Of a stretch of 40,927 bases of DNA, positions 6,221-40,927 are shown piece after piece; the first letter of the stretch is position 1, and every line of letters begins with the position of its first letter. The position numbers were made by a program, and so were the translations under genes. The notes below the pieces were generated by a model. The model was not told where the DNA came from, made no database searches, and saw nothing but the letters and a program-made list of their open reading frames with translations. Origin of the DNA: Candidatus Woesearchaeota archaeon (GTDB lineage Archaea > Nanobdellota > Nanobdellia > Pacearchaeales > GW2011-AR1); contig CAYZSY010000003.1 in NCBI GenBank assembly GCA_964481185.1, positions 1 through 40,927 on the forward strand, written 5' to 3'.

Positions 6221-6907
6221 ATGAAATGTGTAATACTATGCGGGGGGCAAGGCACGAGAATGGGAGACCTGACTCAAGAGATGCCCAAACCTCTTCTTAA
6301 GATAGGGAATAAACCTATGTTATGCCATCTCATGGACTATTATGCAAAATATGGCGTCACAGAATTTATTGTTTGTTTGGGTTATCTGGGAGACAAAATA
6401 AAGGGATATTTTGCTGAAAATCCATCAAAATATAGCATAACATTTGTTGATACTGGAGAGAATACAACAAAGGCAGAAAGATTATTGAAGATTAAAGATT
6501 TGCTAGATGAGGATTTTTGTGTTGCATACGGAGACGATCTTTCAGATGTAAACATCAAGGAATTAGTTGAATTTTACAATTCTAAGAATAAAATTGCCAT
6601 GCTGACTGCAATAAGGCCGCAAAATCCCTTCGGCATTCTCGAGCTAGATGAAGAGACATCTGAAATAAAGGATTTTAAGGAAAAACCACTGATGAACGAA
6701 TGGATAAATGGGGGTTACTTCATATTTAATAAAAAAATTTTTAATTATTTTGGAGAAGGAGATGAGCTTGAGAAAGAGATATTTGAAAAGCTAGTCAAGG
6801 ACAAACAGATAGTGGCGTACAAGCATAGAGGATTCTGGAAATCAATGAATAACCTAAAGGATTATAAAGACCTAAATTTAATGTTTGAAAGTGGGAAACT
6901 AAAATGA
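6221..6907 (+). CDS. rfbF: Glucose-1-phosphate cytidylyltransferase-like sugar nucleotidyltransferase
   Basis: MKCVILCGGQGTRMGDLTQEMPKPLLKIGNKPMLCHLMDYYAKYGVTEFIVCLGYLGDKIKGYF matches my recollection of the RfbF/DdhA N-terminus (ILAGGxGTR...KPKPMVEIGGKPILWHIM...F(I/V)ICxGYKG). At 228 aa it is somewhat shorter than typical. Confidence 0.8.
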   Translation: MKCVILCGGQGTRMGDLTQEMPKPLLKIGNKPMLCHLMDYYAKYGVTEFIVCLGYLGDKIKGYFAENPSKYSITFVDTGENTTKAERLLKIKDLLDEDFCVAYGDDLSDVNIKELVEFYNSKNKIAMLTAIRPQNPFGILELDEETSEIKDFKEKPLMNEWINGGYFIFNKKIFNYFGEGDELEKEIFEKLVKDKQIVAYKHRGFWKSMNNLKDYKDLNLMFESGKLK

Positions 6908-16634: not shown

Positions 16635-17774
16635 ATGAAAGTACCATTCGCAGATTTAACAAGAGATGAGAAAGAGACTTTTATAGAAGGAACAAGCTTA
16701 GAACAAAGAATAAAATGGGCAATTTTTAATGTTATAGATAAGAAGGCCTTTATTCTAGGAGAGCACGTTGCGAGTTTTGAAAATTCATTTGCAGAATTTT
16801 GTGGCGTAAAATACTGCATAGGTGTTTCAGATGGTCTTTCTGCTTTAGAGCTCTCATTAATAAGCAAGGGGATTGGTTCGGGAGATGAAGTAATAACTGT
16901 CGCAAATACATTTAATGCCACTGTTGGAGGAATATTGAAGACCGGGGCAAAACCAGTTCTGGTTGATGCATCAAATTCAGATTTTAACATTGATATTAAT
17001 AAGATAAACGAGAAGATAAACAAAAATACAAAGGCAATTATCCCAGTTCATTTATATGGTCAGTCCTCAAATATGAACCCTCTCTGGGAATTGGCAGAAA
17101 GAAATAATCTTTCAATAATAGAAGATGCTTGTCAGGCACATGGAGCAACCTTTGAGGGCAAGCGAGTCGGAAGTTTAGGGAAAGCAGGCTGTTTTTCTTT
17201 TTACCCGGGCAAAAATCTTGGCAGTTATGGGGATGGTGGGGCGGTAGTCACTAATGATAGCGATGTAGCAGATTTTATAAGAAAAACAAGGAATTATGGT
17301 CAATCTAAAAAATATTTCCACGATATAAGGCCGGATAATGCAAGATTAGATGCAATACAGGCAGTAGTTCTATCAGAAAAGTTAAAGGTATTAGACAAAT
17401 GGAATGCTATGCGTTCCGATAATGCCAGAATTTACAGGGATAATTTAAATGAAGTGAACGATATAGAACTGCCCTCTGAAAGAAAATCCGGCGAGCATGT
17501 TTATCATTTGTATGTAATAAAATCCGATAAAAGGGATGAGTTGGAAAAATATCTTGAAAGCAGAGGAATTACAACCGGTCTTCACTATCCAGTCCCAATT
17601 CATTTACAAAAATGTTTTGCTCACATAGGCTATAAAGAAGGAGATTTTCCAGTTTCTGAACATTTATCAAAAAAAGTACTTACACTTCCTATGTTTCCAA
17701 CAATGAGAAAAGAAGAAATAACCTACATAACGGATTCTATAAAAGAATTTCTTACTACTTCACAAGAATCTTGA
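16635..17774 (+). CDS. DegT/DnrJ/EryC1/StrS PLP-dependent sugar aminotransferase (WbpE/WlbC-like)
   Basis: SDGLSALELSL, IIEDACQAHGA, and CFSFYPGKNLGSYGDGGAV with the canonical Schiff-base Lys. It starts immediately after the acetyltransferase stop. Confidence 0.85.
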   Translation: MKVPFADLTRDEKETFIEGTSLEQRIKWAIFNVIDKKAFILGEHVASFENSFAEFCGVKYCIGVSDGLSALELSLISKGIGSGDEVITVANTFNATVGGILKTGAKPVLVDASNSDFNIDINKINEKINKNTKAIIPVHLYGQSSNMNPLWELAERNNLSIIEDACQAHGATFEGKRVGSLGKAGCFSFYPGKNLGSYGDGGAVVTNDSDVADFIRKTRNYGQSKKYFHDIRPDNARLDAIQAVVLSEKLKVLDKWNAMRSDNARIYRDNLNEVNDIELPSERKSGEHVYHLYVIKSDKRDELEKYLESRGITTGLHYPVPIHLQKCFAHIGYKEGDFPVSEHLSKKVLTLPMFPTMRKEEITYITDSIKEFLTTSQES

Positions 17775-23881: not shown

Positions 23882-24973
23882 ATGGCTCAAAAAGTAGCGC
23901 TAATAACAGGAATAGGCGGTCAAGATGGATCTTATTTGGCAGAATTTCTTTTGGAGAAAGGATACAAAGTAAGAGGCATAATTAGAAGGGCAAGTCTTCC
24001 AAATACAAAAAGAATAGAGCATCTTGTAATGAAATACGGCACTTCAGATGATAAAAACTCTTCATTTTTAGTTAAATACGCAGACCTCACAGATACTTCT
24101 TCAATAAAGGCAATTATTGAGGATTTTCAACCGGATGAAATTTATCATATTGGTGCACAAAGCCACGTCGGTATAAGCTTTAATAATGCAGAATCAACAA
24201 TTAATATAAACACTCTTGGCACACTAAGAATTCTAGAGACTCTCAGACAAATGAAATCAAAATGCAAATTTTATCAGGCCTCTTCTTCAGAAATGTTTGG
24301 AATCTCTCCTCCTCCGCAGAATGAATCTACACCAATGATTCCTCAAAGCCCCTATGGAATATCAAAGCTCGCAGCATACCATTTAACAAGATTGTATAGA
24401 AATGCATACGGGCTTTTTGCTTCTAATGGAATTCTCTTCAATCACGAGTCTCCAAGAAGAGGATATAATTTTGTTACGAGAAAGATAACAAAAGAGCTTG
24501 CAAAGATTGTTGTTGGTGAAAGTGATAAAATTGTCTTGGGCAACCTTGATGCGAAAAGAGACTGGGGTTTCTCAAAAGAATATATTGAAGCAATGTGGGC
24601 AATCCTCCAGCAGCCAACGCCTGATGATTTTGTAATTGCAACAGAAGAAACGCATACAATAGAGGACTTTGTAAAAGAAGCTTTCTCTCTGGTTGGTCTG
24701 AATTATGAGAACCATTTAATAACAAGCAATCAGTTTAAGAGGCCAGCAGAAGTGCCTGCTCTTTTAGGAGATTCCTCAAAAGCAAAAAGAATTTTGGGTT
24801 GGAATCCAAAAGTAAAATTCAAGGAGATTGCATTTATGATGGTTGAATCTGATCTTAAAGAAAAGTTGGAGGAATCTGGATTAATTCCCATAGAGCCAAA
24901 TGTTGTAAGACCAGAAGGATATTATATAGAAAAGGCGAAGGAAATTCTTGCGAAAAGAAAGCAGAACCTTTAA
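23882..24973 (+). CDS. gmd: GDP-mannose 4,6-dehydratase
   Basis: KVALITGIGGQDGSYLAEFLLEKGYKV.GI.RRAS is near-identical in pattern to E. coli Gmd. Also ASSSEMFG, SPYGISKLAAY, NGILFNHESPRRG, FVTRKIT, LGNLDAKRDWGFSKEY, DDFVIAT, RPAEV..LLGDSSKA. Confidence 0.92.
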   Translation: MAQKVALITGIGGQDGSYLAEFLLEKGYKVRGIIRRASLPNTKRIEHLVMKYGTSDDKNSSFLVKYADLTDTSSIKAIIEDFQPDEIYHIGAQSHVGISFNNAESTININTLGTLRILETLRQMKSKCKFYQASSSEMFGISPPPQNESTPMIPQSPYGISKLAAYHLTRLYRNAYGLFASNGILFNHESPRRGYNFVTRKITKELAKIVVGESDKIVLGNLDAKRDWGFSKEYIEAMWAILQQPTPDDFVIATEETHTIEDFVKEAFSLVGLNYENHLITSNQFKRPAEVPALLGDSSKAKRILGWNPKVKFKEIAFMMVESDLKEKLEESGLIPIEPNVVRPEGYYIEKAKEILAKRKQNL

Positions 24974-25460: not shown

Positions 25461-26681
25461 TTATTCTGGAACAATAAATTTTATATTTGGATTTATTTTT
25501 GCCAAACCATCTTTTATCTGATTAGCTATGTTCCAAGAAAGTATCAAGGCACAGACCTCCCCGTTATATTTTGCAAAGATCTCATCTCCAACTATTGGGA
25601 TTCTACTCAACGGAGTATATTTTCCTTGTTTATGGGGAGAAGAGTCTGTAACATAATCTAAAATAGTATTTGTCAGATTGTAAAAGTTAAGGAAAGTATT
25701 TCCCTTTGCAGCAGCTCCAACCGCAACTATCGGAATATTCCTTCTCCTAATTTCATAGACTTTTTGGAGAAAGTTATTTCTTTGTTTTATTATATCTTCC
25801 ATAAATCTTTTGTAGCCATTTAAATCAAATAGCCCTTCTGAGAATTCTTTGTTGATGGTTTCCTCAAGCTGGCTGCATTCCGCACTCTCTACTCTATCTT
25901 CATGTTTTGCATAAACTCTCAATGAGCCGCCATGATAATCAACAACATCCAAATCTCTTATTCCCATCCCAGCTATCTCCAATATCTTTTTTGATGATCT
26001 TGCTGTGAAATAACTGACATGCTCATGATATATCTGATCAAATTTGCCTGTTTTGAATCCGATATACCAATATGGGAGCTCGTAAACAAAAGTTCCATCA
26101 TCAGAAAGCAGTTTTTTTACAGCTTTTGCAAAATCAAGGGGGCTGTTTGAGTGATTGAAAACGTTATTTGCGATAATAATGTCTGCTTTTCCATGTTTTT
26201 TCAATATTTCATCAGCAATTTTGGAATCAAAGAGACCAACTACAGTATCAACATTCCTATTTTTTGCAAGTCTCGCCATATAGTCAGAAGGATCAACGCC
26301 TAGAACCCTGTTTCCATTGCTTGCAAACTGTTCTGTTAAGAACCCGTCATTTGAACCTACTTCAACAATGAATGAATCTTTCTTTAAGCCTATCTTATCA
26401 GATACTTCTCTGGCGAAGTTTATCCAATGTGTTCTTGAAAAGTTAGAATTGGAGGAAGTATAAGAATAATCTACCTGACAATATCTGTCCATTGGATTTG
26501 TTTCGCATCTAAGCTGTATTTGGCCGCATTCTTGACAAAGGTCGCATATCAAAGGATATGCTTTATCTGCCTCAGAAATGCGGTCTTTAGGTACGAATGT
26601 GTCTGCAAACGGGTGCATTCCCAAATTTATTATCTCATTAAGGTTTATTGAACCGCAGATCAAGCACTTTGTTCTAAACAT
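25461..26681 (-). CDS. NDP-hexose C-methyltransferase (TylC3/EvaC-type class I SAM methyltransferase with N-terminal Zn-ribbon and C-methyltransferase C-terminal domain)
   Basis: CLICGS...YPLICDLCQECGQIQL (two Cys pairs), VEVGSNDG (SAM motif I), YHEHVSYF and HGGSLRVYA. I recognise this architecture from sugar C3/C5 C-methyltransferases. Confidence 0.8.
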   Translation of the reverse strand: MFRTKCLICGSINLNEIINLGMHPFADTFVPKDRISEADKAYPLICDLCQECGQIQLRCETNPMDRYCQVDYSYTSSNSNFSRTHWINFAREVSDKIGLKKDSFIVEVGSNDGFLTEQFASNGNRVLGVDPSDYMARLAKNRNVDTVVGLFDSKIADEILKKHGKADIIIANNVFNHSNSPLDFAKAVKKLLSDDGTFVYELPYWYIGFKTGKFDQIYHEHVSYFTARSSKKILEIAGMGIRDLDVVDYHGGSLRVYAKHEDRVESAECSQLEETINKEFSEGLFDLNGYKRFMEDIIKQRNNFLQKVYEIRRRNIPIVAVGAAAKGNTFLNFYNLTNTILDYVTDSSPHKQGKYTPLSRIPIVGDEIFAKYNGEVCALILSWNIANQIKDGLAKINPNIKFIVPE

Positions 26682-30478: not shown

Positions 30479-30583
30479 ATTTATAAACCTTAATTTATTC
30501 TTGCTAAGATAAAGCATATATTCTCCAATATGAATGTTTAAAAATCGTGTCAATTATAAGAAATTATGAGTTTTAGAAGGGTT
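30479..30583. repeat. Copy B of the ~105-nt direct repeat (functional bidirectional promoter of the 547-aa gene and the SDR operon)
   Basis: See copy A. It contains TTTATAAA at 30480-30487 (minus-strand box, 37 nt from ATG 30450) and TTTAAAAA at 30537-30544 (29 nt from ATG 30566). Confidence 0.6.
30537..30544 (+). promoter_or_regulatory. TATA box (gaatgTTTAAAAA) for the 30566-37758 operon
   Basis: Starts 29 nt upstream of ATG 30566. Confidence 0.5.
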
Positions 30584-31546
30584 TTAATCACTGGAATTAG
30601 CGGCTCTGGAGGGAGCTATCTTGCGGAGTATGTAGCAGATAATCATCCTGAATCAGAGATTCATGGAATCTCAAGATGGCACAGTACTTCTTCTAAGAAG
30701 AATCTTGAGAGAATTGCAGATAAAGTGCAAATGCACGAATGCGATTTAACTGATATGAGCTCGGTTATTTCTTCTTTAAGAGAAACTAAGCCAGAGGCCA
30801 TATTTCACATTGCTTCTCACGCAAATGTTCGGGCTTCTTTTACAAATCCTCTGGCAGTCATTCAGAATAATATTATGGGAACCGCAAATCTTCTTGAAGC
30901 ATTGAGAATCGAGGGAATGAATTCAAGAGTTCAAATTTGCAGCACATCAGAAGTCTATGGGCAGGTTGATTCTAAAAATGTGCCTATTAAAGAGGATTGT
31001 CCAATAAATCCATCAAATCCTTATGCTGTCTCAAAGGTTGCTCAAGATTTGCTTGGTGGAGTTTATCATAGAAGTTATCAAATGGATATTGTAAGAACAA
31101 GAATGTTTTCTTATCTAAATCCAAGGAGGTCAGACTTATTTTCAACAAGCTTTGCTCTTCAAGTGGCAAGAATAGAACAAGGATTGCAGAAAGAGCTCAT
31201 ACATGGAAATCTAGACTCTACAAGAACAATTATAGATGTTAGAGATGCAATGGAGTCCTATTGGGTTGCAATAGAAAAAGGAAGGTCTGGAGAAGTTTAT
31301 AATATTGGAGGAGATAAGATAATAACAGTTGGAGAATTCTTACATCTTTTAAGGAAGAATGCAAAATGCGAGATTCCATGCAGGCAGGATCAATCATTAA
31401 TGAGGCCAAGCGATGTGACTTTGCAAATACCGGATGTATCAAAATTTAGAAACGAAACAGGATGGAAACCAAAATATAGTTTTGAGGAGAGTGTGGAATA
31501 TTTATTAAATCACTCTAGAAAAGAAGTTGAGAGGGAGATAAAATGA
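30566..31546 (+). CDS. Extended SDR of the GDP-mannose 4,6-dehydratase / GDP-4-keto-6-deoxymannose reductase (Gmd/Rmd, DmhA/DmhB-like) group
   Basis: RVLITGISGSGGSYLAEY, CSTSEVYG, PYAVSK (YxxxK), HGNLDSTRTIIDVRD (compare Gmd LGN.D..RDW and Rmd GNL...RDF.DVRD). Confidence 0.6.
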   Translation: MSFRRVLITGISGSGGSYLAEYVADNHPESEIHGISRWHSTSSKKNLERIADKVQMHECDLTDMSSVISSLRETKPEAIFHIASHANVRASFTNPLAVIQNNIMGTANLLEALRIEGMNSRVQICSTSEVYGQVDSKNVPIKEDCPINPSNPYAVSKVAQDLLGGVYHRSYQMDIVRTRMFSYLNPRRSDLFSTSFALQVARIEQGLQKELIHGNLDSTRTIIDVRDAMESYWVAIEKGRSGEVYNIGGDKIITVGEFLHLLRKNAKCEIPCRQDQSLMRPSDVTLQIPDVSKFRNETGWKPKYSFEESVEYLLNHSRKEVEREIK

Positions 31547-32532
31547 GTTTTTATAATAATAAGAAGGTTCTGATTACTGGCGGCTCTGGTATGATAGGAA
31601 GACCATTAATTAAGATGTTGACTGAAAGAGGGGCCAAGGTAAGAGTAACATCATTGGACGAACCTATAAAAAATTTAGGAGAGATAGACTTTCAGAAAGC
31701 AGATTTAACTCATTTAGAAAATTGTGTTAGCGCATGTAAAGATATGGATTTAGTTTTTCATCTTGCTGGAATAAAGGGTTCTGCAAAAATAGTATCTGAA
31801 AAACCAGCAACTTTTTTCTTTGGTAATCTTAGTATTAACACTAATATGATGGAAGCAGCAAGAAGGTGCGGAGCTGAAAGATATCTTTTTACAAGTACTG
31901 TTGGAGTGTATTCTCCAGCAGAGGTTTTTTACGAAGATGATGTCTGGAAAACCTTTCCTTCAGAAAAGGACAAGTTTGCAGGATGGGCAAAAAGAATGGG
32001 TGAGTTGCAGGCAGAAGCTTATAGTCTTCAATATAAATGGGACAAAATAACAATTGTTAGGCCTGCAAATGTTTACGGACCTTACGATAGTTTTGGGGCA
32101 GCAAATGCAATGGTTGTTCCTTCTTTAATAAAAAGAGCTGTTGATGGAGAGAATCCCTTTGTTGTCTGGGGGGATGGATCTGGGACAAGAGATTTTGTAT
32201 ATTCAGAAGATGTTGCAAGAGGCATGACGATGGCTCTTGAAAAATGTCCAGGACCTAATAAGCCTATAAATCTGGGTAGCGGCACAGGTTATTCTATAAA
32301 AAATTTGGTAAATATAATAATTGGTAATCTTGAAAAAAAGCCAGAAGTTGTTTGGGATACAAACAAACCACGTGGTGATAGAAAAAGGATACTGGACATT
32401 TCAAGAGCTAAAGATTTATTGGGATGGGAGCCGCAAATGACTCTTGAAGAAGGAGTAAGAAAGACAATGGATTGGTATAAAATAAATAAAGAAGCTGTTA
32501 GTGATAGATATTCCGCATTTAATGAAAAATAA
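31543..32532 (+). CDS. Extended SDR NDP-sugar epimerase/reductase (Fcl/WcaG-like)
   Basis: KKVLITGGSGMIGRPL, VRPANVYGPYDSF, VVPSLIKRA, VVWGDGSGTRDFVYSEDVA, WDTNKPRGDRKRILDISRAK. ATGA overlap with the upstream gene. Confidence 0.55.
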   Translation: MSFYNNKKVLITGGSGMIGRPLIKMLTERGAKVRVTSLDEPIKNLGEIDFQKADLTHLENCVSACKDMDLVFHLAGIKGSAKIVSEKPATFFFGNLSINTNMMEAARRCGAERYLFTSTVGVYSPAEVFYEDDVWKTFPSEKDKFAGWAKRMGELQAEAYSLQYKWDKITIVRPANVYGPYDSFGAANAMVVPSLIKRAVDGENPFVVWGDGSGTRDFVYSEDVARGMTMALEKCPGPNKPINLGSGTGYSIKNLVNIIIGNLEKKPEVVWDTNKPRGDRKRILDISRAKDLLGWEPQMTLEEGVRKTMDWYKINKEAVSDRYSAFNEK

Positions 32533-33211
32533 ATCTGTCTTAATAACTGGCTCTAGCAGAGGTCTTGGAAGAGAACTCGCTCTTGTTTTTGCTAGAGAAA
32601 AATATGGTATAATTCTAAACGGAAGAAATGGAATAGAACTGGAAAAAACTGCTGGGGAGATAAGAAAATTGGGTGTTGAGTGCTGTTCTGTGTTAGGAGA
32701 TATCAGAGATAGGAGAACTTTAGATGCTTTGTATGATGCTTCAAAAAGAAATGATATGGGGGTTCTGGTGAATAATGCCGGCTCTTCACTATCTGCACTT
32801 AAAGAAGTGGCAAATTATTTAAGTGATGAACAGATAGATGAAATGATAGAGACTCATCTTTCAGCTCCAATCAAGCTTGTTGCAAGAATGCTTCCATTAT
32901 TAAAAGAAAATAAAGGGACTATTATAAATATAAATTCACTTTCAGGTCTTGAGATTAAAAGATTGAGGGCTTGTTATTGTGCAAGCAAGTGGGGTTTAAG
33001 GGCATATACGGATGCGCTGAGACTGGAAACTGCTGATAATGTTAGGGTAATTGGGGTTTATCCAAGCAGGATAAAGACTATTCCAGAATTTCAGGGTTAT
33101 GGTTGGGAGCCAAGAGAGGTAGCAGAAAGAATATACGAAAGTTTTAAAAATATAGACAGCACAAATCTGGTATTGGATGGCAGGCCTACAGAGCATAGGA
33201 CATCAAGATGA
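32501..33211 (+). CDS. Classical short-chain dehydrogenase/reductase
   Basis: VLITGSSRGLGRELA (TGxxxGxG), NNAG, YCASK (YxxxK). The listed GTG start overlaps the upstream gene by 32 nt. ATG at 32522 (MKNKSVLITG) is a more likely start. Confidence 0.7.
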   Translation: MIDIPHLMKNKSVLITGSSRGLGRELALVFAREKYGIILNGRNGIELEKTAGEIRKLGVECCSVLGDIRDRRTLDALYDASKRNDMGVLVNNAGSSLSALKEVANYLSDEQIDEMIETHLSAPIKLVARMLPLLKENKGTIININSLSGLEIKRLRACYCASKWGLRAYTDALRLETADNVRVIGVYPSRIKTIPEFQGYGWEPREVAERIYESFKNIDSTNLVLDGRPTEHRTSR

Positions 33212-34188
33212 GCAAAAAAGTTTTAGTATGTGGTGCAACAGGATTCATAGGAAGAAATACTGCTGAATTCTTGTCAAAGAGAGAAGACTTTGAGGTTTAT
33301 GGGACATATCATAATTCTCAGCGGTATGACAATTCACGCATTAACCTTGAGAATATAGATCTTACTGATAAGGATGCTGTAAGAAGAATTGTCAAAGGAA
33401 AAGATGTGATAGTGCAAGCTGCAGCAGCCTGTTCTGGAGCGTTAGAAATGAAAACTAAACCATATTACCATGTTGTTGATAATGTTAGAATGAATCCATT
33501 AATTTTTGAAGCAGCCCACGAGTTTGGGGTGCCGCATGTTATATTTCCTAGTTGCACTACAGTATATTTGCCTTCAGACAAGCCATTAAAAGAAGAAGAT
33601 TTTAACTTAAGCGATGGATTATTGCCAAATTATCTTTGGTGTGGAGGGACAAAAGTTTTTCTAGAAAAACTATGCGAACTATTTTCTGGACTAGGCAATA
33701 CAAGATATACTGTTTTTAGGCATTCAAATGTTTATGGACCTTACGATAAGTTTGACTTAGAAAGGTCACATGTATTTGGTGCGACAATGACAAAAGTAAT
33801 GACTGCGAAAGATGGGGGAGAGGTAGTTGTCTGGGGAGATGGCGAAGGAGAGAGAGATTTATTATATTCATCTGATATTGCTGGATTTATAGAAAGAGCA
33901 ATTGATAGGCAAACAACACCTTTTGAGATTGTTAATGTAGGATGCGAAAGCGCCATATCTATAAAAAACCTTGTTCAGAAAATTATTGACATTTCTGGAA
34001 AAAACCTTAGTATAAAATATGATTTATATAGACTCGTGAGGGATAAAAAAACAAAAAAGGATAATGAAAGAATGGTTCTTGACTCAACAAAAGCAAGAGA
34101 GAAATTTGGGTGGCAGCAACAGACAGCTTTAGACGATGGTATTAGATATACAATGGAATGGTATAAGAAGAATATCTTAGCAACATAA
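33208..34188 (+). CDS. Extended SDR, Fcl-like NDP-sugar epimerase/reductase with an atypical active-site segment
   Basis: KVLVCGATGFIGRN, FPSCTTVY, NVYGPYDKFDLERSHVFGA, VVWGDGEGERDLLYSSD. The segment PNYLWCGGTKVFLEKLCE aligns by eye with Fcl PTNEPYAIAKIAGIKLCE, which puts Cys where the catalytic Tyr is expected. Confidence 0.55.
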   Translation: MSKKVLVCGATGFIGRNTAEFLSKREDFEVYGTYHNSQRYDNSRINLENIDLTDKDAVRRIVKGKDVIVQAAAACSGALEMKTKPYYHVVDNVRMNPLIFEAAHEFGVPHVIFPSCTTVYLPSDKPLKEEDFNLSDGLLPNYLWCGGTKVFLEKLCELFSGLGNTRYTVFRHSNVYGPYDKFDLERSHVFGATMTKVMTAKDGGEVVVWGDGEGERDLLYSSDIAGFIERAIDRQTTPFEIVNVGCESAISIKNLVQKIIDISGKNLSIKYDLYRLVRDKKTKKDNERMVLDSTKAREKFGWQQQTALDDGIRYTMEWYKKNILAT

Positions 34189-34247: not shown

Positions 34248-35213
34248 ATGCAAAAAGAGAGAATTCTCATAACAGGTGGCGCAGGATATCTGGGAAGTGT
34301 TTTATCAAGGCACATTATTGAAAGAGGAAATCCTGTTACAATAGTTGACAATTTGATGTACAATCAAGATTTTGCTACAGGCCTTAAAGATAATCCTCTA
34401 TTTGAGATTATCAAGGGAGATGTTAGAGACAAGGAATTAATTAGAAGAGCCATTAGAGATAAAGAGGTTATAATTCCTTTAGCTGCTCTTGTTGGAATGC
34501 CCATTTGTAATAGAAATCCTGAAGATGCTCTATCAATTAATCGGGATGCAGTGATTATGCTCAATGAATTAAGAGGAATTAATCAAAAGCTTGTTTACCC
34601 AACAACCAATAGCGGCTATGGCACAAAAACAGGAGAAGTTTTCTGTACAGAAGAAACTCCTTTGGACCCTATTTCTGTTTATGGGATATCAAAATGCGAA
34701 GCTGAAAGAGCATTGCTTGAATCGGCAAAGCCAGCCATAACTTTTAGATTTGCCACTATTTTTGGATTTTCTCCAAGAATGAGGCTCGACTTGCTCGTGA
34801 ACGATTTCGTATTTAGAGCAATGACTGAGAAAAAACTTGTGTTATTCGAACCGCATTTTAAAAGAAACTATTTACATATTAAAGATGCAGCAAGAGTATT
34901 CATGCATGCTATTGATAATTTTGATTCTATGCATGGCAAGCCGTATAATGTTGGATTAGAAGACGCAAATTTGTCAAAAATGGAGCTAGCCTTGAAAATA
35001 AAAAGTTATATTCCAGAATTAGATATTAGCGAGGGAGATGGAAAAGACCCTGATCAAAGAAACTATATTGTTTCCAACAAAAGAATAACGGATACAGGAT
35101 TTAGAACAAACTTTTCATTGGATTATGGTATAAAAGAGCTTATTGGTCTTTATGAAGAGATACTAAAAAAGGAGACACCTGCAAATATAAGAAAACGCAT
35201 GGCAAATATATGA
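34248..35213 (+). CDS. Extended SDR NAD-dependent NDP-sugar epimerase/dehydratase
   Basis: RILITGGAGYLGSVL, PTTNSGYG, VYGISK (YxxxK), RNYLHIKDAA. Confidence 0.6.
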   Translation: MQKERILITGGAGYLGSVLSRHIIERGNPVTIVDNLMYNQDFATGLKDNPLFEIIKGDVRDKELIRRAIRDKEVIIPLAALVGMPICNRNPEDALSINRDAVIMLNELRGINQKLVYPTTNSGYGTKTGEVFCTEETPLDPISVYGISKCEAERALLESAKPAITFRFATIFGFSPRMRLDLLVNDFVFRAMTEKKLVLFEPHFKRNYLHIKDAARVFMHAIDNFDSMHGKPYNVGLEDANLSKMELALKIKSYIPELDISEGDGKDPDQRNYIVSNKRITDTGFRTNFSLDYGIKELIGLYEEILKKETPANIRKRMANI

Positions 35214-35740
35214 TAAAAAGAGCTGTTTTTTTAGATAGAGATGGGGTAATTTGTAAGGAGAAAAATCTATTTTACGGTGGGAAGCCCATACTTAGACCAG
35301 AGGATTTTGAGTGGATTTATGGCTCTAAAACTGCATTGAGAGAATTGAAAGAATTAAATTTTAAAACATTCGTTGTTACGAACCAGTCATCCATCAGTAA
35401 AGGCATTCTGAATTTTAAGCAGTTTATGAGAATAAATCAGCCAATAATCGAGGAGCATCCTGAAATTCATTTTTACTGTTGCCCGCATAGAAGAGAAGAA
35501 AATTGTTCCTGTAGAAAACCCAAGATAAAATTTCTTCTTCAAGCTAAGAAAGAGCACGGAGTTTCATTAGAAGATTCTTATGTAATTGGAGACAAAACGC
35601 AAGATATTCTGATGGGAAAAAATGCAGGATGCAAAACAATTCTCGTTAGAACGGGATATGGTGGAAGAGACGAGTTGTACAAAGTCAAATATGATTTTGA
35701 GGTCAGAGATTTTTTGGAGGCAGTCAGATTCTTAAGATGA
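35210..35740 (+). CDS. gmhB: D-glycero-D-manno-heptose 1,7-bisphosphate phosphatase (HAD-IIIA, GmhB-type)
   Basis: AVFLDRDGVI (DxDG nucleophile motif), VVTNQSSISKG, the Zn-finger insert CCPHRREENCSCRKPK, and GDKTQDILMGKNAG. ATGA overlaps on both sides. Confidence 0.8.
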   Translation: MIKRAVFLDRDGVICKEKNLFYGGKPILRPEDFEWIYGSKTALRELKELNFKTFVVTNQSSISKGILNFKQFMRINQPIIEEHPEIHFYCCPHRREENCSCRKPKIKFLLQAKKEHGVSLEDSYVIGDKTQDILMGKNAGCKTILVRTGYGGRDELYKVKYDFEVRDFLEAVRFLR

Positions 35741-37758
35741 AAGCGATTATTCTTGCAGGGGGTTTTGGAACAAGATTAAAAAGCATACTTGGAGATATCC
35801 CCAAACACATGATAATGATTGCTGGCAAGCCTTTCTTAGAATACCAGATAATGTTTCTTAAGAAACAGGGGATAAATGAGATAATCTTAGCAGTTCATCA
35901 TATGTCAAATAAGATAAAATCTTATTTTGGCAATGGGTCGAGATTGGGTGTAGATATAATATATTCTGAAGAAGAAACCCCTCTTGGTACAGGCGGGGCA
36001 ATTAAGAATGCACAAAGATACATAGATGATACTTTCTTGGTTCTAAACGGAGATTCTTATTCTCAGATAGATATTCAGAAATTTTTAGAATTTCACCGCT
36101 CCAAAAATAGCATTTCTACAATAAGCATAATGAAAACCAATGATTCTGAAAATTATGGCAATATTATTCTAGATGGAAGCAAAATAACAGACTTTTCGGA
36201 GAAAAAAGAGTCTACGGGGGGATTTGCCAATAGCGGAGTATATATCTTAGAACCAAGCATTTTCAAATATATAGAACATAACAAAAATATCTCTCTTGAA
36301 AAAGAGATATTCCCAAATTTAGCAAAAGCAGGTTTAATGCAAGGATATTTCTATAATGGTTATTTCATGGATATAGGCAGGCCTGAAACATATAATCAAT
36401 TTAAAAAAGATGTTATTGACACCCTTTTCTTAAGCGAAAGAAACAAAATAAGGGAGGCTATACAAAGAATCTCAGAAAGCAGAATAGACGTTATTTTAGT
36501 TGTAGATGAGAATAAGAAGTTTCTTGGCATTTTAAATGACCAGCTTATTAAAGAGTTTATACTAAAAGGAGGAAATGTCGACGATAATGTTGGGATGGCT
36601 ATAAGAAAAGACCATGTAACTGCAAAAATAAACGACGATCCTAAAAAAATATCAGATATTCTCATATCTGGAATTAACCCTCTTCCAATATTAGATGATA
36701 ACGGGAGAGTAAATACAATAGAATTCCTGGAAGAAAAAATAAAAGCTGAAAATTTCCCAATTGTTAGAGGTAAAGCCCCCCTTAGGATAAGTTTTGCTGG
36801 TGGCGGAACAGATTTGCCTTATTTTTTTAGAAAATATGGGGGCGTTGTTATCAATGCGACTATTAATAAATATTGTTACGCTACTATTATAAAAAGAGCT
36901 GATTCAAAAATAATAATTAATTCAGATATTTGTGATGAGATTATTTTGGATTCAAAAAAGAGATTGGAATATGACGGAAAATTAGACTTAATCAAAGCAA
37001 TTGTAAATATTATGAAGCCTGATTTCGGTTTTGAGATTTATTTGCATAATGATATTCCTCCAGGAAGGGGGCTTGGCTCATCAGCTTCTATAGCGGTTTT
37101 AGTTATTAGCCTGTTAAGCTATCTACAAAACCTTAATTATGATGATTATAAGATTGCAGAGATTGCATATACGGCAGAGCGTGAGGAGCTAAAAATAAAA
37201 GGCGGCTGGCAGGACCAGTATGCTGCAGTAATAGGCGGATTTAATTTTATAGAATTCAATGAAGAAAAGAGCATCATATATCCTTTAAGGCTAAAGGAAG
37301 AATTGGTTCACGAATTAAAAGAGTACGTATCTCTTTACTATGTTGGAATTTCTAGGCACTCTGGGGAAGTTCATAAGAGTTGGGAAGAAACTTTTGCACA
37401 AAAAGAAGAAGATATAATAAAAAACCTTAACAATCTTAAATCGCTGACTATAAAAATAAAGGATTGTATACTTACTAATAATTTAGAGATGATAGGAAAA
37501 TTGCTGCACGAATCTTGGGAAAATAAGAAGAAATTAAGTAAAAATATATCTAATCCTGTTATCGATAATTTATACGAAATAGGGTTGAATAACGGGGTTT
37601 ATGGAGGAAAATTGCTAGGAGCAGGCGGCGGAGGTTATCTTTTGCTTTTTCATCCTTCTAAAAAGAGAAATCAGATAAAAAAGGCCTTGGAAAATTCAGG
37701 CGGGCAGCTTTTGGACTTTAATTTTGAATTTGGCGGGACTAAAATTTGGACAGCATAA
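35737..37758 (+). CDS. Tri-domain fusion: sugar-1-phosphate nucleotidyltransferase (HddC-like) + CBS pair + GHMP sugar kinase (HddA-like heptose-7-phosphate kinase)
   Basis: N-terminus MKAIILAGGFGTRL...GKPFLEYQI...PLGTGGAI...LNGDSY (NTP_transferase). The middle has two CBS-like repeats (IDVILVVDENKKFLGILNDQLIKEF; INPLPILDDNGRVNTIEF). The C-terminus has RGKAPLRISFAGGGTDLPYF and PPGRGLGSSASIAV plus GAGGGGYLLLF (GHMP kinase, COG2605/HddA-like). Confidence 0.75.
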   Translation: MKAIILAGGFGTRLKSILGDIPKHMIMIAGKPFLEYQIMFLKKQGINEIILAVHHMSNKIKSYFGNGSRLGVDIIYSEEETPLGTGGAIKNAQRYIDDTFLVLNGDSYSQIDIQKFLEFHRSKNSISTISIMKTNDSENYGNIILDGSKITDFSEKKESTGGFANSGVYILEPSIFKYIEHNKNISLEKEIFPNLAKAGLMQGYFYNGYFMDIGRPETYNQFKKDVIDTLFLSERNKIREAIQRISESRIDVILVVDENKKFLGILNDQLIKEFILKGGNVDDNVGMAIRKDHVTAKINDDPKKISDILISGINPLPILDDNGRVNTIEFLEEKIKAENFPIVRGKAPLRISFAGGGTDLPYFFRKYGGVVINATINKYCYATIIKRADSKIIINSDICDEIILDSKKRLEYDGKLDLIKAIVNIMKPDFGFEIYLHNDIPPGRGLGSSASIAVLVISLLSYLQNLNYDDYKIAEIAYTAEREELKIKGGWQDQYAAVIGGFNFIEFNEEKSIIYPLRLKEELVHELKEYVSLYYVGISRHSGEVHKSWEETFAQKEEDIIKNLNNLKSLTIKIKDCILTNNLEMIGKLLHESWENKKKLSKNISNPVIDNLYEIGLNNGVYGGKLLGAGGGGYLLLFHPSKKRNQIKKALENSGGQLLDFNFEFGGTKIWTA

Positions 37759-37766
37759 ACTAGATA

Positions 37767-38891
37767 CTAAAATCTTTTAAAATATTTGTGTAAAACATCA
37801 GAAGCGTAATCTAAATCTTCTATTGTTAAATATTGATGTACCCCAAAATGCAATCCATTATCTCCAATATATTCTGCTTCTGGAAAATCTCCCAACTTAT
37901 ACCCTAAAAATTCAAATGCCTTATGTTGAGTAGGCATACTCCCAAAATTTCTCTTACATTTTATAGAATTCTCTTCTAGAAATTTGGATAATTTGGCAAG
38001 ATTATACTTCGGGTCTTTCAAGGTAACACTGAATCCATGGGGACAGACACTTTCATAACTATTTTCTGTATTAAAATAAGCGTATTCTTTCAAGTCCATT
38101 GTTCTCTCAATTAGCCTATTTAAATTTTCTTTCCTTTTATTAAATGTCCACCAGAACCTATCTATTTCAGATAATCCTATGGATGCCTCCAAGTCATTCA
38201 TTTTTGCATTATGCCCTAATCTCACGTGATTAAAATATAAATCTCCATCTTTTCTCCCATGTGTTCTGACAGACCTTAAAATTGGGGCAATCATATCATT
38301 ATTTGTAGAAATCATTCCCCCTTCACCACAACAGACAAGATGTGCAATATAATAGCTGAAAGTCGCCATATCTCCCCAATTTCCTACGTATTTTCCCTTA
38401 AATTTTGCTCCATGTGCCTCACAAGAGTCTTCTATAACATAAAGATTATTTCTTCTCGCTATATCTACAATACTATCCATCTCACAAGGTTTGCCCATGG
38501 TATGAACAGCCATTATAGCTCTTGTTCTTGGAGTTATTTTTTCTTCTATCTTCCCGGGGTTTATATTTAGGGTCTCTTTTTCTACATCTACAAAAACAGG
38601 CTTAAATCCTGCAAGCAGAATAGACTCCCCAACTGCTGCAAATGCCAGTGCGGGCGCAATTACTTCATCCCCCCTTCTTGCTCCAAAGTCATACAATGAA
38701 AGACAAGCGCTTAAATCAGCGCTTGTTCCAGAACTAACTGCGATATTATATTTATAATCAAATAACTTTCCCCACTCTTCTTCAAATTTCTTTACTTTCG
38801 GCCCTCCAGAAGCCCAATTTGTTTCAACAACATTAAGAAGATTTTGTCTGGCTTTTTCATCTATCCTAAGTTCACCGAATTCCACTCTCAT
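37767..38891 (-). CDS. DegT-family PLP/PMP enzyme with His replacing the Schiff-base Lys: predicted NDP-4-keto-6-deoxy-sugar 3-dehydratase (ColD/E1-like)
   Basis: SSGTSADLSA, VIEDSCEAHGA and ATFSYYIAHLVCCGEGGMIST. The position occupied by Lys in the paralog at 16635 (FSFYPGKNLGSYGDGG) is His here, as in ColD and E1 dehydratases. Confidence 0.7.
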   Translation of the reverse strand: MRVEFGELRIDEKARQNLLNVVETNWASGGPKVKKFEEEWGKLFDYKYNIAVSSGTSADLSACLSLYDFGARRGDEVIAPALAFAAVGESILLAGFKPVFVDVEKETLNINPGKIEEKITPRTRAIMAVHTMGKPCEMDSIVDIARRNNLYVIEDSCEAHGAKFKGKYVGNWGDMATFSYYIAHLVCCGEGGMISTNNDMIAPILRSVRTHGRKDGDLYFNHVRLGHNAKMNDLEASIGLSEIDRFWWTFNKRKENLNRLIERTMDLKEYAYFNTENSYESVCPHGFSVTLKDPKYNLAKLSKFLEENSIKCKRNFGSMPTQHKAFEFLGYKLGDFPEAEYIGDNGLHFGVHQYLTIEDLDYASDVLHKYFKRF

Positions 38892-38941: not shown

Positions 38942-39712
38942 TTATTTTGGTTGATGAAGCTTTCTCCAGTGAGTTTCACAAGCGTTAGTTGAATTTTCTA
39001 TTTGTTCTATTCTTTTTCTAAACATTCCTAAATCCTTTTCTTCACTCTCCGTTTGTTGCCTTGGATGAACATAATCAATTTCTACACTAGCCACCCTCTC
39101 ACCAGCACTAATAGCGTCTATAATTGGGATTAGAGTAACCTCCCATTTGTCCCCATATTCTCCTTTATATTCTGTAAAATAACTTGAGAACTCTCTTTTC
39201 CATATTCTTGGACCAAAGCAATAATCTAAATCCCTGCCTGTAAGTTCTCTTAAAAAAGTATTGCAAAGGAGTTCTGCATACTGTTGTACAACAGGATAAG
39301 ACTCCAGAGATTTTCTTTTTGGAATAACTAAATCAGCAGAACCATCTATAATTGGTTTAACAGCCTTATCAATTTGATGTATAAAAGGTGCTTTTTCTGG
39401 CTCTGTCCAGACAATAATTTCTTTGCCACTATCATAAGCTAATTTAAAGGCCTGCCTTCTGCAATTGCCCATTCCACTCAATTCTTGTTGACATACTTCT
39501 GCTCCAAGTCTTTCAAAATCTCTTAATAATTCTGCTGAAGAGCCGCCATCAACTACAATTATCTTATATCCCAGCTCTTTCGCATTTGTTATGGTTTCTT
39601 TTGCAATCTCTGCTCTAACCAAATCATTTTCCAAAGATGACCTGTATAATGTTGTCGTAGCTATTACAATTTTATCAGAAATCTCATTTTTCATTATGGG
39701 TTTAATAGTCAT
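38942..39712 (-). CDS. Uncharacterised protein, possibly a GT-A-fold (nucleotide-diphospho-sugar transferase-like) enzyme
   Basis: IVIATTTLYRS...YKIIVVDGGSS...IIVWTEPEK...GSADLVIPKR has the strand/acidic-motif rhythm of a GT-A Rossmann-like domain, but I cannot name a family. Confidence 0.3.
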   Translation of the reverse strand: MTIKPIMKNEISDKIVIATTTLYRSSLENDLVRAEIAKETITNAKELGYKIIVVDGGSSAELLRDFERLGAEVCQQELSGMGNCRRQAFKLAYDSGKEIIVWTEPEKAPFIHQIDKAVKPIIDGSADLVIPKRKSLESYPVVQQYAELLCNTFLRELTGRDLDYCFGPRIWKREFSSYFTEYKGEYGDKWEVTLIPIIDAISAGERVASVEIDYVHPRQQTESEEKDLGMFRKRIEQIENSTNACETHWRKLHQPK

Positions 39713-39807: not shown

Positions 39808-40389
39808 ATGTTTAAGATAAAGAATAAGGAGCTAATTACTGAAATTTCTGGGGAAGCTAAACAATTCCCAAAATATACAACTCAAATAATTAATCTTGCT
39901 AATCAAAATGCACAAGGAACACGCCCAAAGGTTGTAGGGCAGTTATCAGAACTTATACAGAAATGCCCTCATAAAGAATACTCAAAATGGAAAGAATGGT
40001 ATTTACAGCAACAACCTAAAGCAATAGGAGACGCAACAGATAAGGTTTTTGCTATGGTTGAAGAATTGAAGAAAGCCATTAATCAGATTGATAAAGAAAT
40101 GGTTAAAGCATGGGTTAGAGATTTAGTAATTGATAAAACTTTTATTGGATTAAAGTTTCAAGAAGCAATTTTAAAGAGAGTAGCAAGTATGAAGAAAACT
40201 ACTTGTCGCTTATCTAATCCTCAAGAAGAAAGTAAAGGTATTGATGGTTATATTGGAAAAGAGCCAGTTTCAATAAAGCCAACAACTTACAAAACTAAGA
40301 ATATGCTAAATGAAAAGATAGATGCTAAATTTATATTCTATGATAAAAAGAAAGATGGTATAAATGTAGACATCTCACAATTAGAATAA
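39808..40389 (+). CDS. Candidate type II restriction endonuclease (possibly MjaI-family)
   Basis: 193 aa with no other recognisable domain. EESKGIDGYIGKEPVSIKP could be a PD-(D/E)xK-like E.K...D core. It is convergent with, and overlaps by 9 nt, an N4/N6 DNA methyltransferase gene. The family assignment comes from memory of size and context only. Confidence 0.4.
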   Translation: MFKIKNKELITEISGEAKQFPKYTTQIINLANQNAQGTRPKVVGQLSELIQKCPHKEYSKWKEWYLQQQPKAIGDATDKVFAMVEELKKAINQIDKEMVKAWVRDLVIDKTFIGLKFQEAILKRVASMKKTTCRLSNPQEESKGIDGYIGKEPVSIKPTTYKTKNMLNEKIDAKFIFYDKKKDGINVDISQLE

Positions 40390-40927
40390 ATGCTCTGCTT
40401 CAAATAAGTTTTCATCTTTCTTTGATACACCCTTTATTTTAGGAATTTGCATATTTGTTTCTTGATTTGTTACAACGGGAAAGCCATAAAAATTATTCAT
40501 ATATTTTGTTTTTCCTTTTTCATTTTCTCTTTTTTGAATAAATTCTTTATGATTCTGTATTCTTTGTTCTATAAAATCATTTAATTGAATGGAATTATTT
40601 ATCCTATCTTCTATCATATCGTTAAAAGTATTGTCTATTTCTACTCCTATGCTATTTCTTGCAGAAGCAATAGCCCCTAAAGTTGTTGTGCCTGTTCCTA
40701 GAAAAGGGTCTAGAACTACATCTCCTTGAACAGAAAACATATTAATTAGTCTATAAGCTAATTCAAAAGGATAAGCTCCGCTTCTTTCTCTTGTTTTTGA
40801 ATTTTCTAATTTTTGGAATGTTCCTTTTATATCTCTCCATTTATCAGAAAACCATATATTTCTTTCTTCCCAGAAAAAAGCACTTCTTTGTCTATTTTCT
40901 TTATGTTCTGGTTTTTTGAATTCTTTT
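40381..40927 (-). CDS. DNA methyltransferase, N4-cytosine/N6-adenine (PF01555-type, beta class), C-terminal part; N-terminus outside window
   Basis: My hand translation shows the frame stays open upstream of the listed Met to the window edge: ...ERSGAYPFELAYRLINMFSVQGDVVLDPFLGTGTTTLGA. PFELAxRLI plus DPFxGxGTT is the SAM-binding motif I region, which lies near the C-terminus in this family, so the DPPY motif should lie beyond 40927. Confidence 0.8.
   Translation of the reverse strand, partial: KEFKKPEHKENRQRSAFFWEERNIWFSDKWRDIKGTFQKLENSKTRERSGAYPFELAYRLINMFSVQGDVVLDPFLGTGTTTLGAIASARNSIGVEIDNTFNDMIEDRINNSIQLNDFIEQRIQNHKEFIQKRENEKGKTKYMNNFYGFPVVTNQETNMQIPKIKGVSKKDENLFEAEHLF

Follow-up and report, generated by a model that had tools for sequence, protein, structure and literature searches.

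A histidine-type DegT protein encoded beside GDP-heptose genes in a Woesearchaeota archaeon, a probable nucleotide-sugar C3-dehydratase

We describe here the gene at positions 37767-38891 of a 40,927-nucleotide stretch of DNA (contig CAYZSY010000003.1; the whole stretch is called the window below) from a Candidatus Woesearchaeota archaeon, a tiny uncultured member of the DPANN group. Its product belongs to the DegT family and carries a histidine, His184, at the position of the lysine with which aminotransferases of this family form a Schiff base. We propose, with a probability of about two in three, that this protein (the target) is a pyridoxamine 5′-phosphate (PMP)-dependent nucleotide-sugar C3-dehydratase with a ColD-like mechanism. 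Judging from the gene context, its substrate is probably a guanosine diphosphate (GDP)-linked 4-keto-heptose rather than a hexose and its product is likely to be a GDP-3-deoxy- or GDP-3,6-dideoxy-4-keto-heptose; the activity, the cofactor cycle and the identity of both nucleotide and sugar are all things that we infer. The well-characterised 3-dehydratases are E1, ColD and SpnQ, and replacement of the lysine by histidine is their defining feature (PMC8987622).

The open reading frame (ORF) starts with ATG and encodes 374 amino acids, the size given in a preliminary description made from the sequence alone. The product matches PF01041 (DegT_DnrJ_EryC1) over its full length with 301.5 bits and contains the motif FSYYIAHLVCCGEGG, encoded at positions 38316-38360 of the reverse strand. 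In HMMER alignments with solved aminotransferases, His184 falls on the Schiff-base lysine of 7b0m ('fsfngnKiittgggg') and of perosamine synthase ('fsffgnKiittgegg'); in MAFFT alignments it shares a column with ColD His188, the histidine of an E1 orthologue and ArnB Lys188. The alignments confirm the Lys to His replacement which the preliminary description had pointed out and also its view that the other DegT gene in the window (16635-17774) is canonical, with a normal lysine in the motif FSFYPGKNLG...GDGG. Among about 150 family members, 98% have a histidine in the catalytic column, and so do all 63 rows of a wider alignment; the substitution is therefore neither a chance event nor a sequencing error. 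The further remark that no lysine lies nearby has to be corrected: Lys163, Lys165 and Lys167 are found upstream of His184 in an AKFKGK stretch preceding the GxxGD motif.

Other residues of ColD are retained: D155 corresponds to D159, the aspartate of the pyridoxal 5′-phosphate (PLP) ring, E158 to E162, N228 to N248 and R253 to R273. The Ser-His pair of ColD (S187-H188) is replaced by Ala183-His184, and Ala-His is present in 97% of the target's family. Columns of conserved lysines were listed as a proxy for a compensating lysine and two, K134 and K313, stand out; K313 occupies the column of ColD R331, in which the E1 orthologue also has an arginine, and K134 is considered below. Two conserved cysteines following the histidine were tried as a metal site and rejected: each is only 77% conserved and the Lys-type ArnB also has a cysteine there. 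An AlphaFold2 model of the target (predicted local distance difference test score, pLDDT, 96.8) resembles the DegT structures 7b0m, perosamine synthase, E1 and ArnB alike, all with a template modelling (TM) score of about 0.9. Judged from this model, a fold search cannot separate dehydratases from aminotransferases and therefore says nothing about function.

The histidine is a phylogenetically coherent character. Of the 130 nearest cluster representatives (50% identity) that have a suitable length, 93 bear it, and in a FastTree phylogeny of 126 sequences the 89 with a histidine group together in a single clade (support 99) which needs only one Lys/His change. An IQ-TREE phylogeny of 88 rows, in which the catalytic column and those adjoining it were masked, gave an identical His/Lys split (Shimodaira-Hasegawa-like approximate likelihood ratio test, SH-aLRT, 97). 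The reference sequences were ColD (WbdK) of Escherichia coli O55:H7, which adjoins the fucose-synthase-like ColC, and the E1 orthologue P0195, verified by its match to PDB 3bcx (4.5e-97); SpnQ was left out of the tree. ColD and the E1-like proteins form a basal subclade of eight rows in the FastTree phylogeny, from which the target is excluded, and the target family is nested well inside the 81-row sister radiation. Sequence identity of the target amounts to 27% with ColD and to 32% with P0195. Given these identities and its position outside their subclade, the target is a true member of the His-type clade and is neither a ColD nor an E1 orthologue.

More than 120 relatives of the target, at 63-83% identity, come mainly from metagenome-assembled genomes of Pacearchaeota, Woesearchaeota and Nanoarchaeota. 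Where these proteins have a database name, it is "DegT/DnrJ/EryC1/StrS aminotransferase" or "dTDP-4-amino-4,6-dideoxygalactose transaminase". Among GTDB genomes, 36 loci were identified that carry family members at 52-73% identity; they come from Nanobdellota, Woesearchaeota, Methanoperedens, Chloroflexota, Myxococcota, bacteria of the candidate phyla radiation and Lentisphaerota. Two of these loci (L005 and L007) include two His-type DegT copies within a single 10-20-kb region. In the tree, a sister clade of the target family with 34 rows (P0127-P0189) keeps the Ala-His histidine and has a degenerate GEGG motif (VEFG, VQMG, SEVG, GEFS and others), which hints at an altered active site and possibly a different reaction. 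Longer forms of 690-880 amino acids (P0125, P0133, P0147, P0174, P0199, P0204 and P0218) also occur among the 50%-identity representatives; their His-type or related DegT domain is present twice or is fused to other domains.

E1 and P0195 include a Cys-rich [2Fe-2S] loop, 'GRdCyC...C...C', located mid-protein about 30-45 residues past the histidine. Pairwise alignment shows the loop to be a 28-residue insertion on the E1 side without counterpart in the target, and the four-Cys motif was not found in the target when it was aligned to E1 and P0195. The preliminary description had been right that the target lacks such a cluster, but had placed the E1 cysteines at the C-terminus. It had also advised a search for an E3-type reductase elsewhere in the genome: no E3-type NAD_binding_1 domain (PF00175) was found in the genome from which the window derives (550 kb in 28 contigs, 81% complete), which does not prove its absence. 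Because neither an Fe-S loop nor an E3-type reductase was found, a ColD-type mechanism is favoured, in which PMP would be regenerated by glutamate.

The target shares with ColD/WbdK of E. coli O55 (PDB 2gms/3b8x) the DegT fold, the equivalence of H184 and H188, the lack of an Fe-S Cys loop, a GDP-sugar context and the presence nearby of fucose-synthase-like (ColC-like) short-chain dehydrogenases/reductases (SDRs). It differs in its identity of 27%, compared to 62-67% among characterised ColD-type enzymes (PMC10440746), in belonging to another subclade, in having Ala rather than Ser before the histidine, and in that its commonest partner is a C4-dehydrogenase and not a 4,6-dehydratase. The ColD-like enzyme foreseen in the preliminary description is thus upheld by the common His clade and by the missing loop and reductase, but not by overall identity, subclade or the residue preceding the histidine. 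The resemblance to E1 (DdhC/RfbH/AscC, the CDP-6-deoxy-L-threo-D-glycero-4-hexulose 3-dehydrase, PDB 3bcx; CDP, cytidine diphosphate) includes the His clade, the Ala-His dipeptide and 32% identity to its orthologue; the target is about 65 residues shorter, without the Cys loop, without an E3 reductase detected in its genome and in a GDP-heptose rather than a CDP-glucose context.

An indication of the substrate comes from the neighbouring genes. All ORFs of the 36 loci and of the window were clustered, and the recurrent clusters were annotated and tabulated. At least one gene of GDP-heptose activation (HddC-HddA fusion, separate HddA or HddC, GmhB or GmhA) is found in 32 of the 36 loci. Homologues of the Cj1427-like SDR encoded at 34248 are present in 25 and those of the 7us5-like SDR encoded at 30566 in nine. 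These two SDRs are the candidate generators of the 4-keto group: 29 of the 36 loci have at least one of them and the window has both. Gene order differs among the loci. The linkage with heptose genes across two domains despite this varying order argues for a shared pathway. Only 2 of 38 loci have a close Gmd homologue in the vicinity of the family, and CDP-glucose genes do not co-occur with it.

The preliminary description had ranked hexose substrates first. It was correct that the window holds the genes for both hexose routes: there is a true Gmd at 23882-24973 (TIGR01472, 426 bits, above the cut-off of 415) and CDP-glucose-type genes are found at 6221 and 6904. These lie 14-31 kb from the target gene, and the family travels with GDP-heptose genes, so a hexose appears less likely and a GDP-linked 4-keto-heptose is the probable substrate. 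The convergent arrangement with the heptose operon, which it had also reported, is borne out, the stop codons of the target gene and of the HddC-CBS-HddA fusion being 8 bp apart. A 3,6-dideoxyheptose route, which it had left possible, comes closest to the evidence as regards the heptose context. It may nevertheless be incomplete, and the Cj1427-like partner would imply a 3-deoxy sugar only; since this C4-dehydrogenase is the commonest partner, the product may keep its 6-hydroxyl.

The product of the 34248 gene aligns essentially without gaps over 300 residues with PDB 6vo6/6vo8 (7e-97). The best solved relative of the 30566 product is 7us5, the Campylobacter jejuni GDP-D-glycero-D-manno-heptose 4,6-dehydratase (1.4e-53), with which it shares an N-terminal insertion, followed by Rmd (2pk3, 9.7e-50). 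Both references carry S-x-E and YxxxK, so these motifs cannot decide its function. Related loci carry reductases like Cj1428 and GDP-fucose synthase, matching at 1e-88 to 1e-99. The 30566-type SDR (9 loci) and the GDP-fucose-synthase/Cj1428-like SDR (16 loci) are never found together in one locus, which would fit either alternative C4-reductases or markers of two pathway modules.

The C. jejuni enzymes provide a precedent for the proposed chemistry. Cj1427 is a GDP-heptose C4-dehydrogenase which recycles alpha-ketoglutarate (PMC10680097). The ColD orthologues of C. jejuni HS:5 and HS:11 act on GDP-6-deoxy-4-keto-D-lyxo-heptose, and the heptose is the likeness to the substrate proposed here (PMC10440746). 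These ColD-type enzymes dehydrate GDP-6-deoxy-4-keto-heptose with PLP and glutamate (PMC10440746, PMC10680097). In vitro, such a dehydratase also accepts the product of Cj1427 and yields GDP-D-glycero-3-deoxy-4-keto-heptose, described as a novel sugar (PMC10680097). The likeness to the C. jejuni pathway, which combines the C4-dehydrogenase Cj1427 with a Cj1428-type C4-reductase, lies in the 34248 product, a close Cj1427 homologue; the difference is that Cj1427 and a C3-dehydratase were combined only in vitro (PMC10680097), whereas the corresponding genes are linked in 25 of our 36 loci. By analogy, this gene pairing would be the natural counterpart of that in vitro mixture.

In the pathway that we propose, the convergent operon beside the target gene would supply the substrate, with C4 being oxidised by the Cj1427-like dehydrogenase (34248) and/or the sugar undergoing 4,6-dehydration by the Gmd-family SDR (30566). 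By homology, the C4 keto group of the GDP-linked 4-keto-heptose would be bound by PMP as a Schiff base; His184 would take a proton from C4′ of the cofactor and the hydroxyl at C3 would leave. Hydrolysis of the resulting ene-amine would give the 3-deoxy-4-keto sugar and ammonia, and PLP would be returned to PMP by L-glutamate, as in ColD, without recourse to an Fe-S cluster or an E3 reductase. The expected outcome would be GDP-D-glycero-3-deoxy-4-keto-heptose and/or GDP-3,6-dideoxy-4-keto-heptose; fucose-synthase-like SDRs would then finish the sugar and glycosyltransferases of the glycosylation locus would use it.

Two further types of gene recur in these loci. A split thiamine pyrophosphate (TPP)-dependent pair, with alpha and beta subunits like those of E1-dehydrogenase or transketolase, lies near the His-type DegT gene in 21 of the 36 loci. 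A B12-binding radical S-adenosylmethionine (B12-radical-SAM) gene is found nearby in 16, often immediately upstream and co-directional (L031:1-17497, L013, L020, L027 and L032, among L001-L038, are examples of loci with these partners). By analogy, such partners may recall the two-carbon branching of 3-deoxy-4-keto sugars, as in yersiniose, and C-methylation. The window itself holds four B12-radical-SAM genes, and no TPP enzyme (Transket_pyr domain) was found in its 81%-complete genome. We tentatively raise the possibility of a widespread natural pathway to 3-deoxy or branched heptoses, in which the intermediate might be elaborated in a yersiniose-like manner by the TPP and B12-radical-SAM enzymes in Methanoperedens, Chloroflexota and DPANN archaea. 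In this equally tentative scheme the dehydratase and the dehydrogenase could share a catalytic pool of alpha-ketoglutarate: the former would free it from glutamate and the latter would use it up, for a net reaction of GDP-heptose + Glu → 3-deoxy-4-keto-heptose + L-2-hydroxyglutarate + NH4+.

Several observations weigh against a heptose C3-dehydratase. The target shares only 27-32% identity with the characterised 3-dehydratases, and the solved proteins closest by raw score and fold are not ColD but Lys-type aminotransferases: the GDP-perosamine synthase (3bn1) and the archaeal or metagenomic sugar transaminases 7b0m and 7b0d (E 8e-57 to 2e-50, TM about 0.9). These enzymes differ in using a Schiff-base lysine, and sequences of the Lys type with the 'FFGNKIIT' motif of perosamine synthase (P0253, for example) fall in groups just outside the His clade; the His/Lys split separates the target from them. 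The residue before the histidine is Ala, as in E1, and not Ser as in ColD, in which S187 is reportedly important according to the mutagenesis literature. K134, conserved at 95% in the close family, might conceivably act in the active site; since it does not appear among the columns conserved at 90% or more in the alignment of the wider His clade, a role as a compensating lysine seems unlikely. The 30566 product may be a reductase of the Rmd type instead of a dehydratase, and 6VO6 is a structure which we take, from its depositor's title, to be C. jejuni Cj1427. Finally, a search of the 81%-complete genome yielded no GmhA/SIS isomerase and the heptose pathway is incomplete as assembled, despite the presence of GmhB, HddA and HddC; the precursor step may reside in an unassembled part, be carried out by an unrecognised enzyme or depend on a host.

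Some of these observations would also suit a different PMP/PLP chemistry on a 4-keto-heptose, such as a transamination that yields a 4-amino-4-deoxy-heptose and involves no internal aldimine, or an epimerisation or isomerisation feeding the TPP and B12-radical-SAM enzymes. We consider this unlikely, but it has several points in its favour. The best sequence and fold matches of the target are aminotransferases, its subfamily is far from the assayed enzymes, and neither the TPP pair nor the B12-radical-SAM protein has an equivalent in the pathways of colitose or of C. jejuni. The His-type SpnQ does have aminotransferase activity when it is deprived of its reductase, but ColD and E1 show none under comparable conditions and, like SpnQ, these well-characterised 3-dehydratases all have the histidine (PMC8987622). 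This residue is strictly conserved throughout the clade. We know of no characterised His-type DegT enzyme with a different primary activity.

An equivalent of ColD, acting on GDP-4-keto-6-deoxy-D-mannose produced by the Gmd of the window and leading to a colitose-like 3,6-dideoxyhexose, is quite improbable. A true Gmd is indeed available with Fcl-like SDRs near, the target has no Fe-S loop, and the GDP-perosamine synthases, its closest Lys-type structures, share this very substrate. Yet the Gmd gene is 14 kb distant and has an Fcl-like gene of its own and an operon including a TylC3-type C-methyltransferase as neighbours, Gmd is rare in the related loci (2 of 38) in comparison with heptose genes (32 of 36), and the low identity to ColD and the position outside its subclade do not point to equivalence. 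The methyltransferase gene adjoining Gmd (25461-26681, reverse strand) encodes a TylC3-type nucleoside diphosphate-4-keto-sugar C-methyltransferase with Methyltransf_14, Methyltransf_13 and Zn-binding domains; its presence hints at a distinct pathway to a branched-chain deoxyhexose, which would compete for the Gmd product. An E1/RfbH-type CDP-4-keto-6-deoxyglucose 3-dehydrase with a reductase partner can practically be dismissed, in spite of the RfbH model NF011936 being the best NCBIfam match (235.3 bits in two stretches), the E1-like Ala-His and the CDP-glucose-type genes at 6221 and 6904, because the score is far under the cut-off of 423, the [2Fe-2S] loop is absent, the search of the 81%-complete genome revealed no E3-type domain and the CDP-glucose genes lie about 30 kb off without co-occurring with the family.

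The features of the window which bear on the GDP-heptose C3-dehydratase proposed here are listed in Table 1. The HddC-CBS-HddA fusion has the Pfam NTP_transferase, CBS and GHMP kinase domains and is found in 14 loci. The small gene located 50 bp upstream of the target gene, on the same strand, is probably co-transcribed with it; no Pfam match was found for its product, and homologues lie near the His-type DegT gene in only three loci. Further along, at 39808-40926, the glycan locus is bordered by genes for a restriction endonuclease of the MjaI type, in convergent orientation (PF09568, 225 bits), and for an N4/N6 DNA methylase (PF01555).

Table 1. Coordinates and predicted functions of the target gene, its His184 codon and neighbouring genes. 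Loci counts refer to genes near the His-type DegT gene.
Feature	Coordinates	Strand	Basis
His-type DegT, predicted PMP-dependent nucleotide-sugar C3-dehydratase	37767..38891	-	PF01041, His clade, AlphaFold2 model
Codon CAT, His184, at the Schiff-base Lys position	38340..38342	-	Aligned to ColD H188, E1-orthologue His, ArnB K188
Gmd-family SDR, candidate heptose 4,6-dehydratase (DmhA-like) or Rmd-like C4-reductase	30566..31546	+	7us5 and 2pk3 matches
GDP-fucose-synthase/GDP-mannose-epimerase-like SDR, candidate epimerase/C4-reductase	31543..32532	+	9 loci
Classical short-chain dehydrogenase	32501..33211	+	PF00106, 124 bits; 6 loci
Second GDP-fucose-synthase-like SDR, candidate epimerase/reductase	33208..34188	+	8 loci
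Cj1427-like extended SDR, predicted GDP-D-glycero-D-manno-heptose C4-dehydrogenase	34248..35213	+	6vo6/6vo8 alignment
GmhB-type heptose 1,7-bisphosphate phosphatase	35210..35740	+	NF006506, 119 bits, and TIGR00213, 101 bits, both below cut-off; cluster in 14 loci
HddC-CBS-HddA fusion (heptose-1-P guanylyltransferase and heptose-7-P kinase)	35737..37758	+	NF049969, 288 bits, and NF049965, 182 bits, both below cut-off
256-amino-acid protein with weak glycosyltransferase (AglJ-like) similarity	38942..39712	-	TIGR04182, 37.9 bits only

Our proposal most likely concerns a known chemistry carried out by an enzyme lineage, a large sister radiation of ColD and E1, that is new to characterisation. Since the catalytic lysine is absent, the aminotransferase name given in databases to the whole family is very probably wrong. 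His-type 3-dehydratases have been termed "less abundant" in a review (PMC8987622); with 93 of the 130 nearest representatives bearing the histidine, the His clade is instead extensive and has hardly been explored. Its repeated association with a Cj1427-type dehydrogenase and with TPP and B12-radical-SAM enzymes points to heptose-derived sugars which have not been described, and sugars of the 3-deoxy-heptose kind have to date been obtained only in vitro, from mixtures of C. jejuni enzymes. To our knowledge, no pathway for a 3-deoxy or 3,6-dideoxy sugar has been characterised in archaea. If our reading is correct, such a sugar would be part of the surface glycan of DPANN archaea, organisms which rely on cell-cell contact with their hosts.

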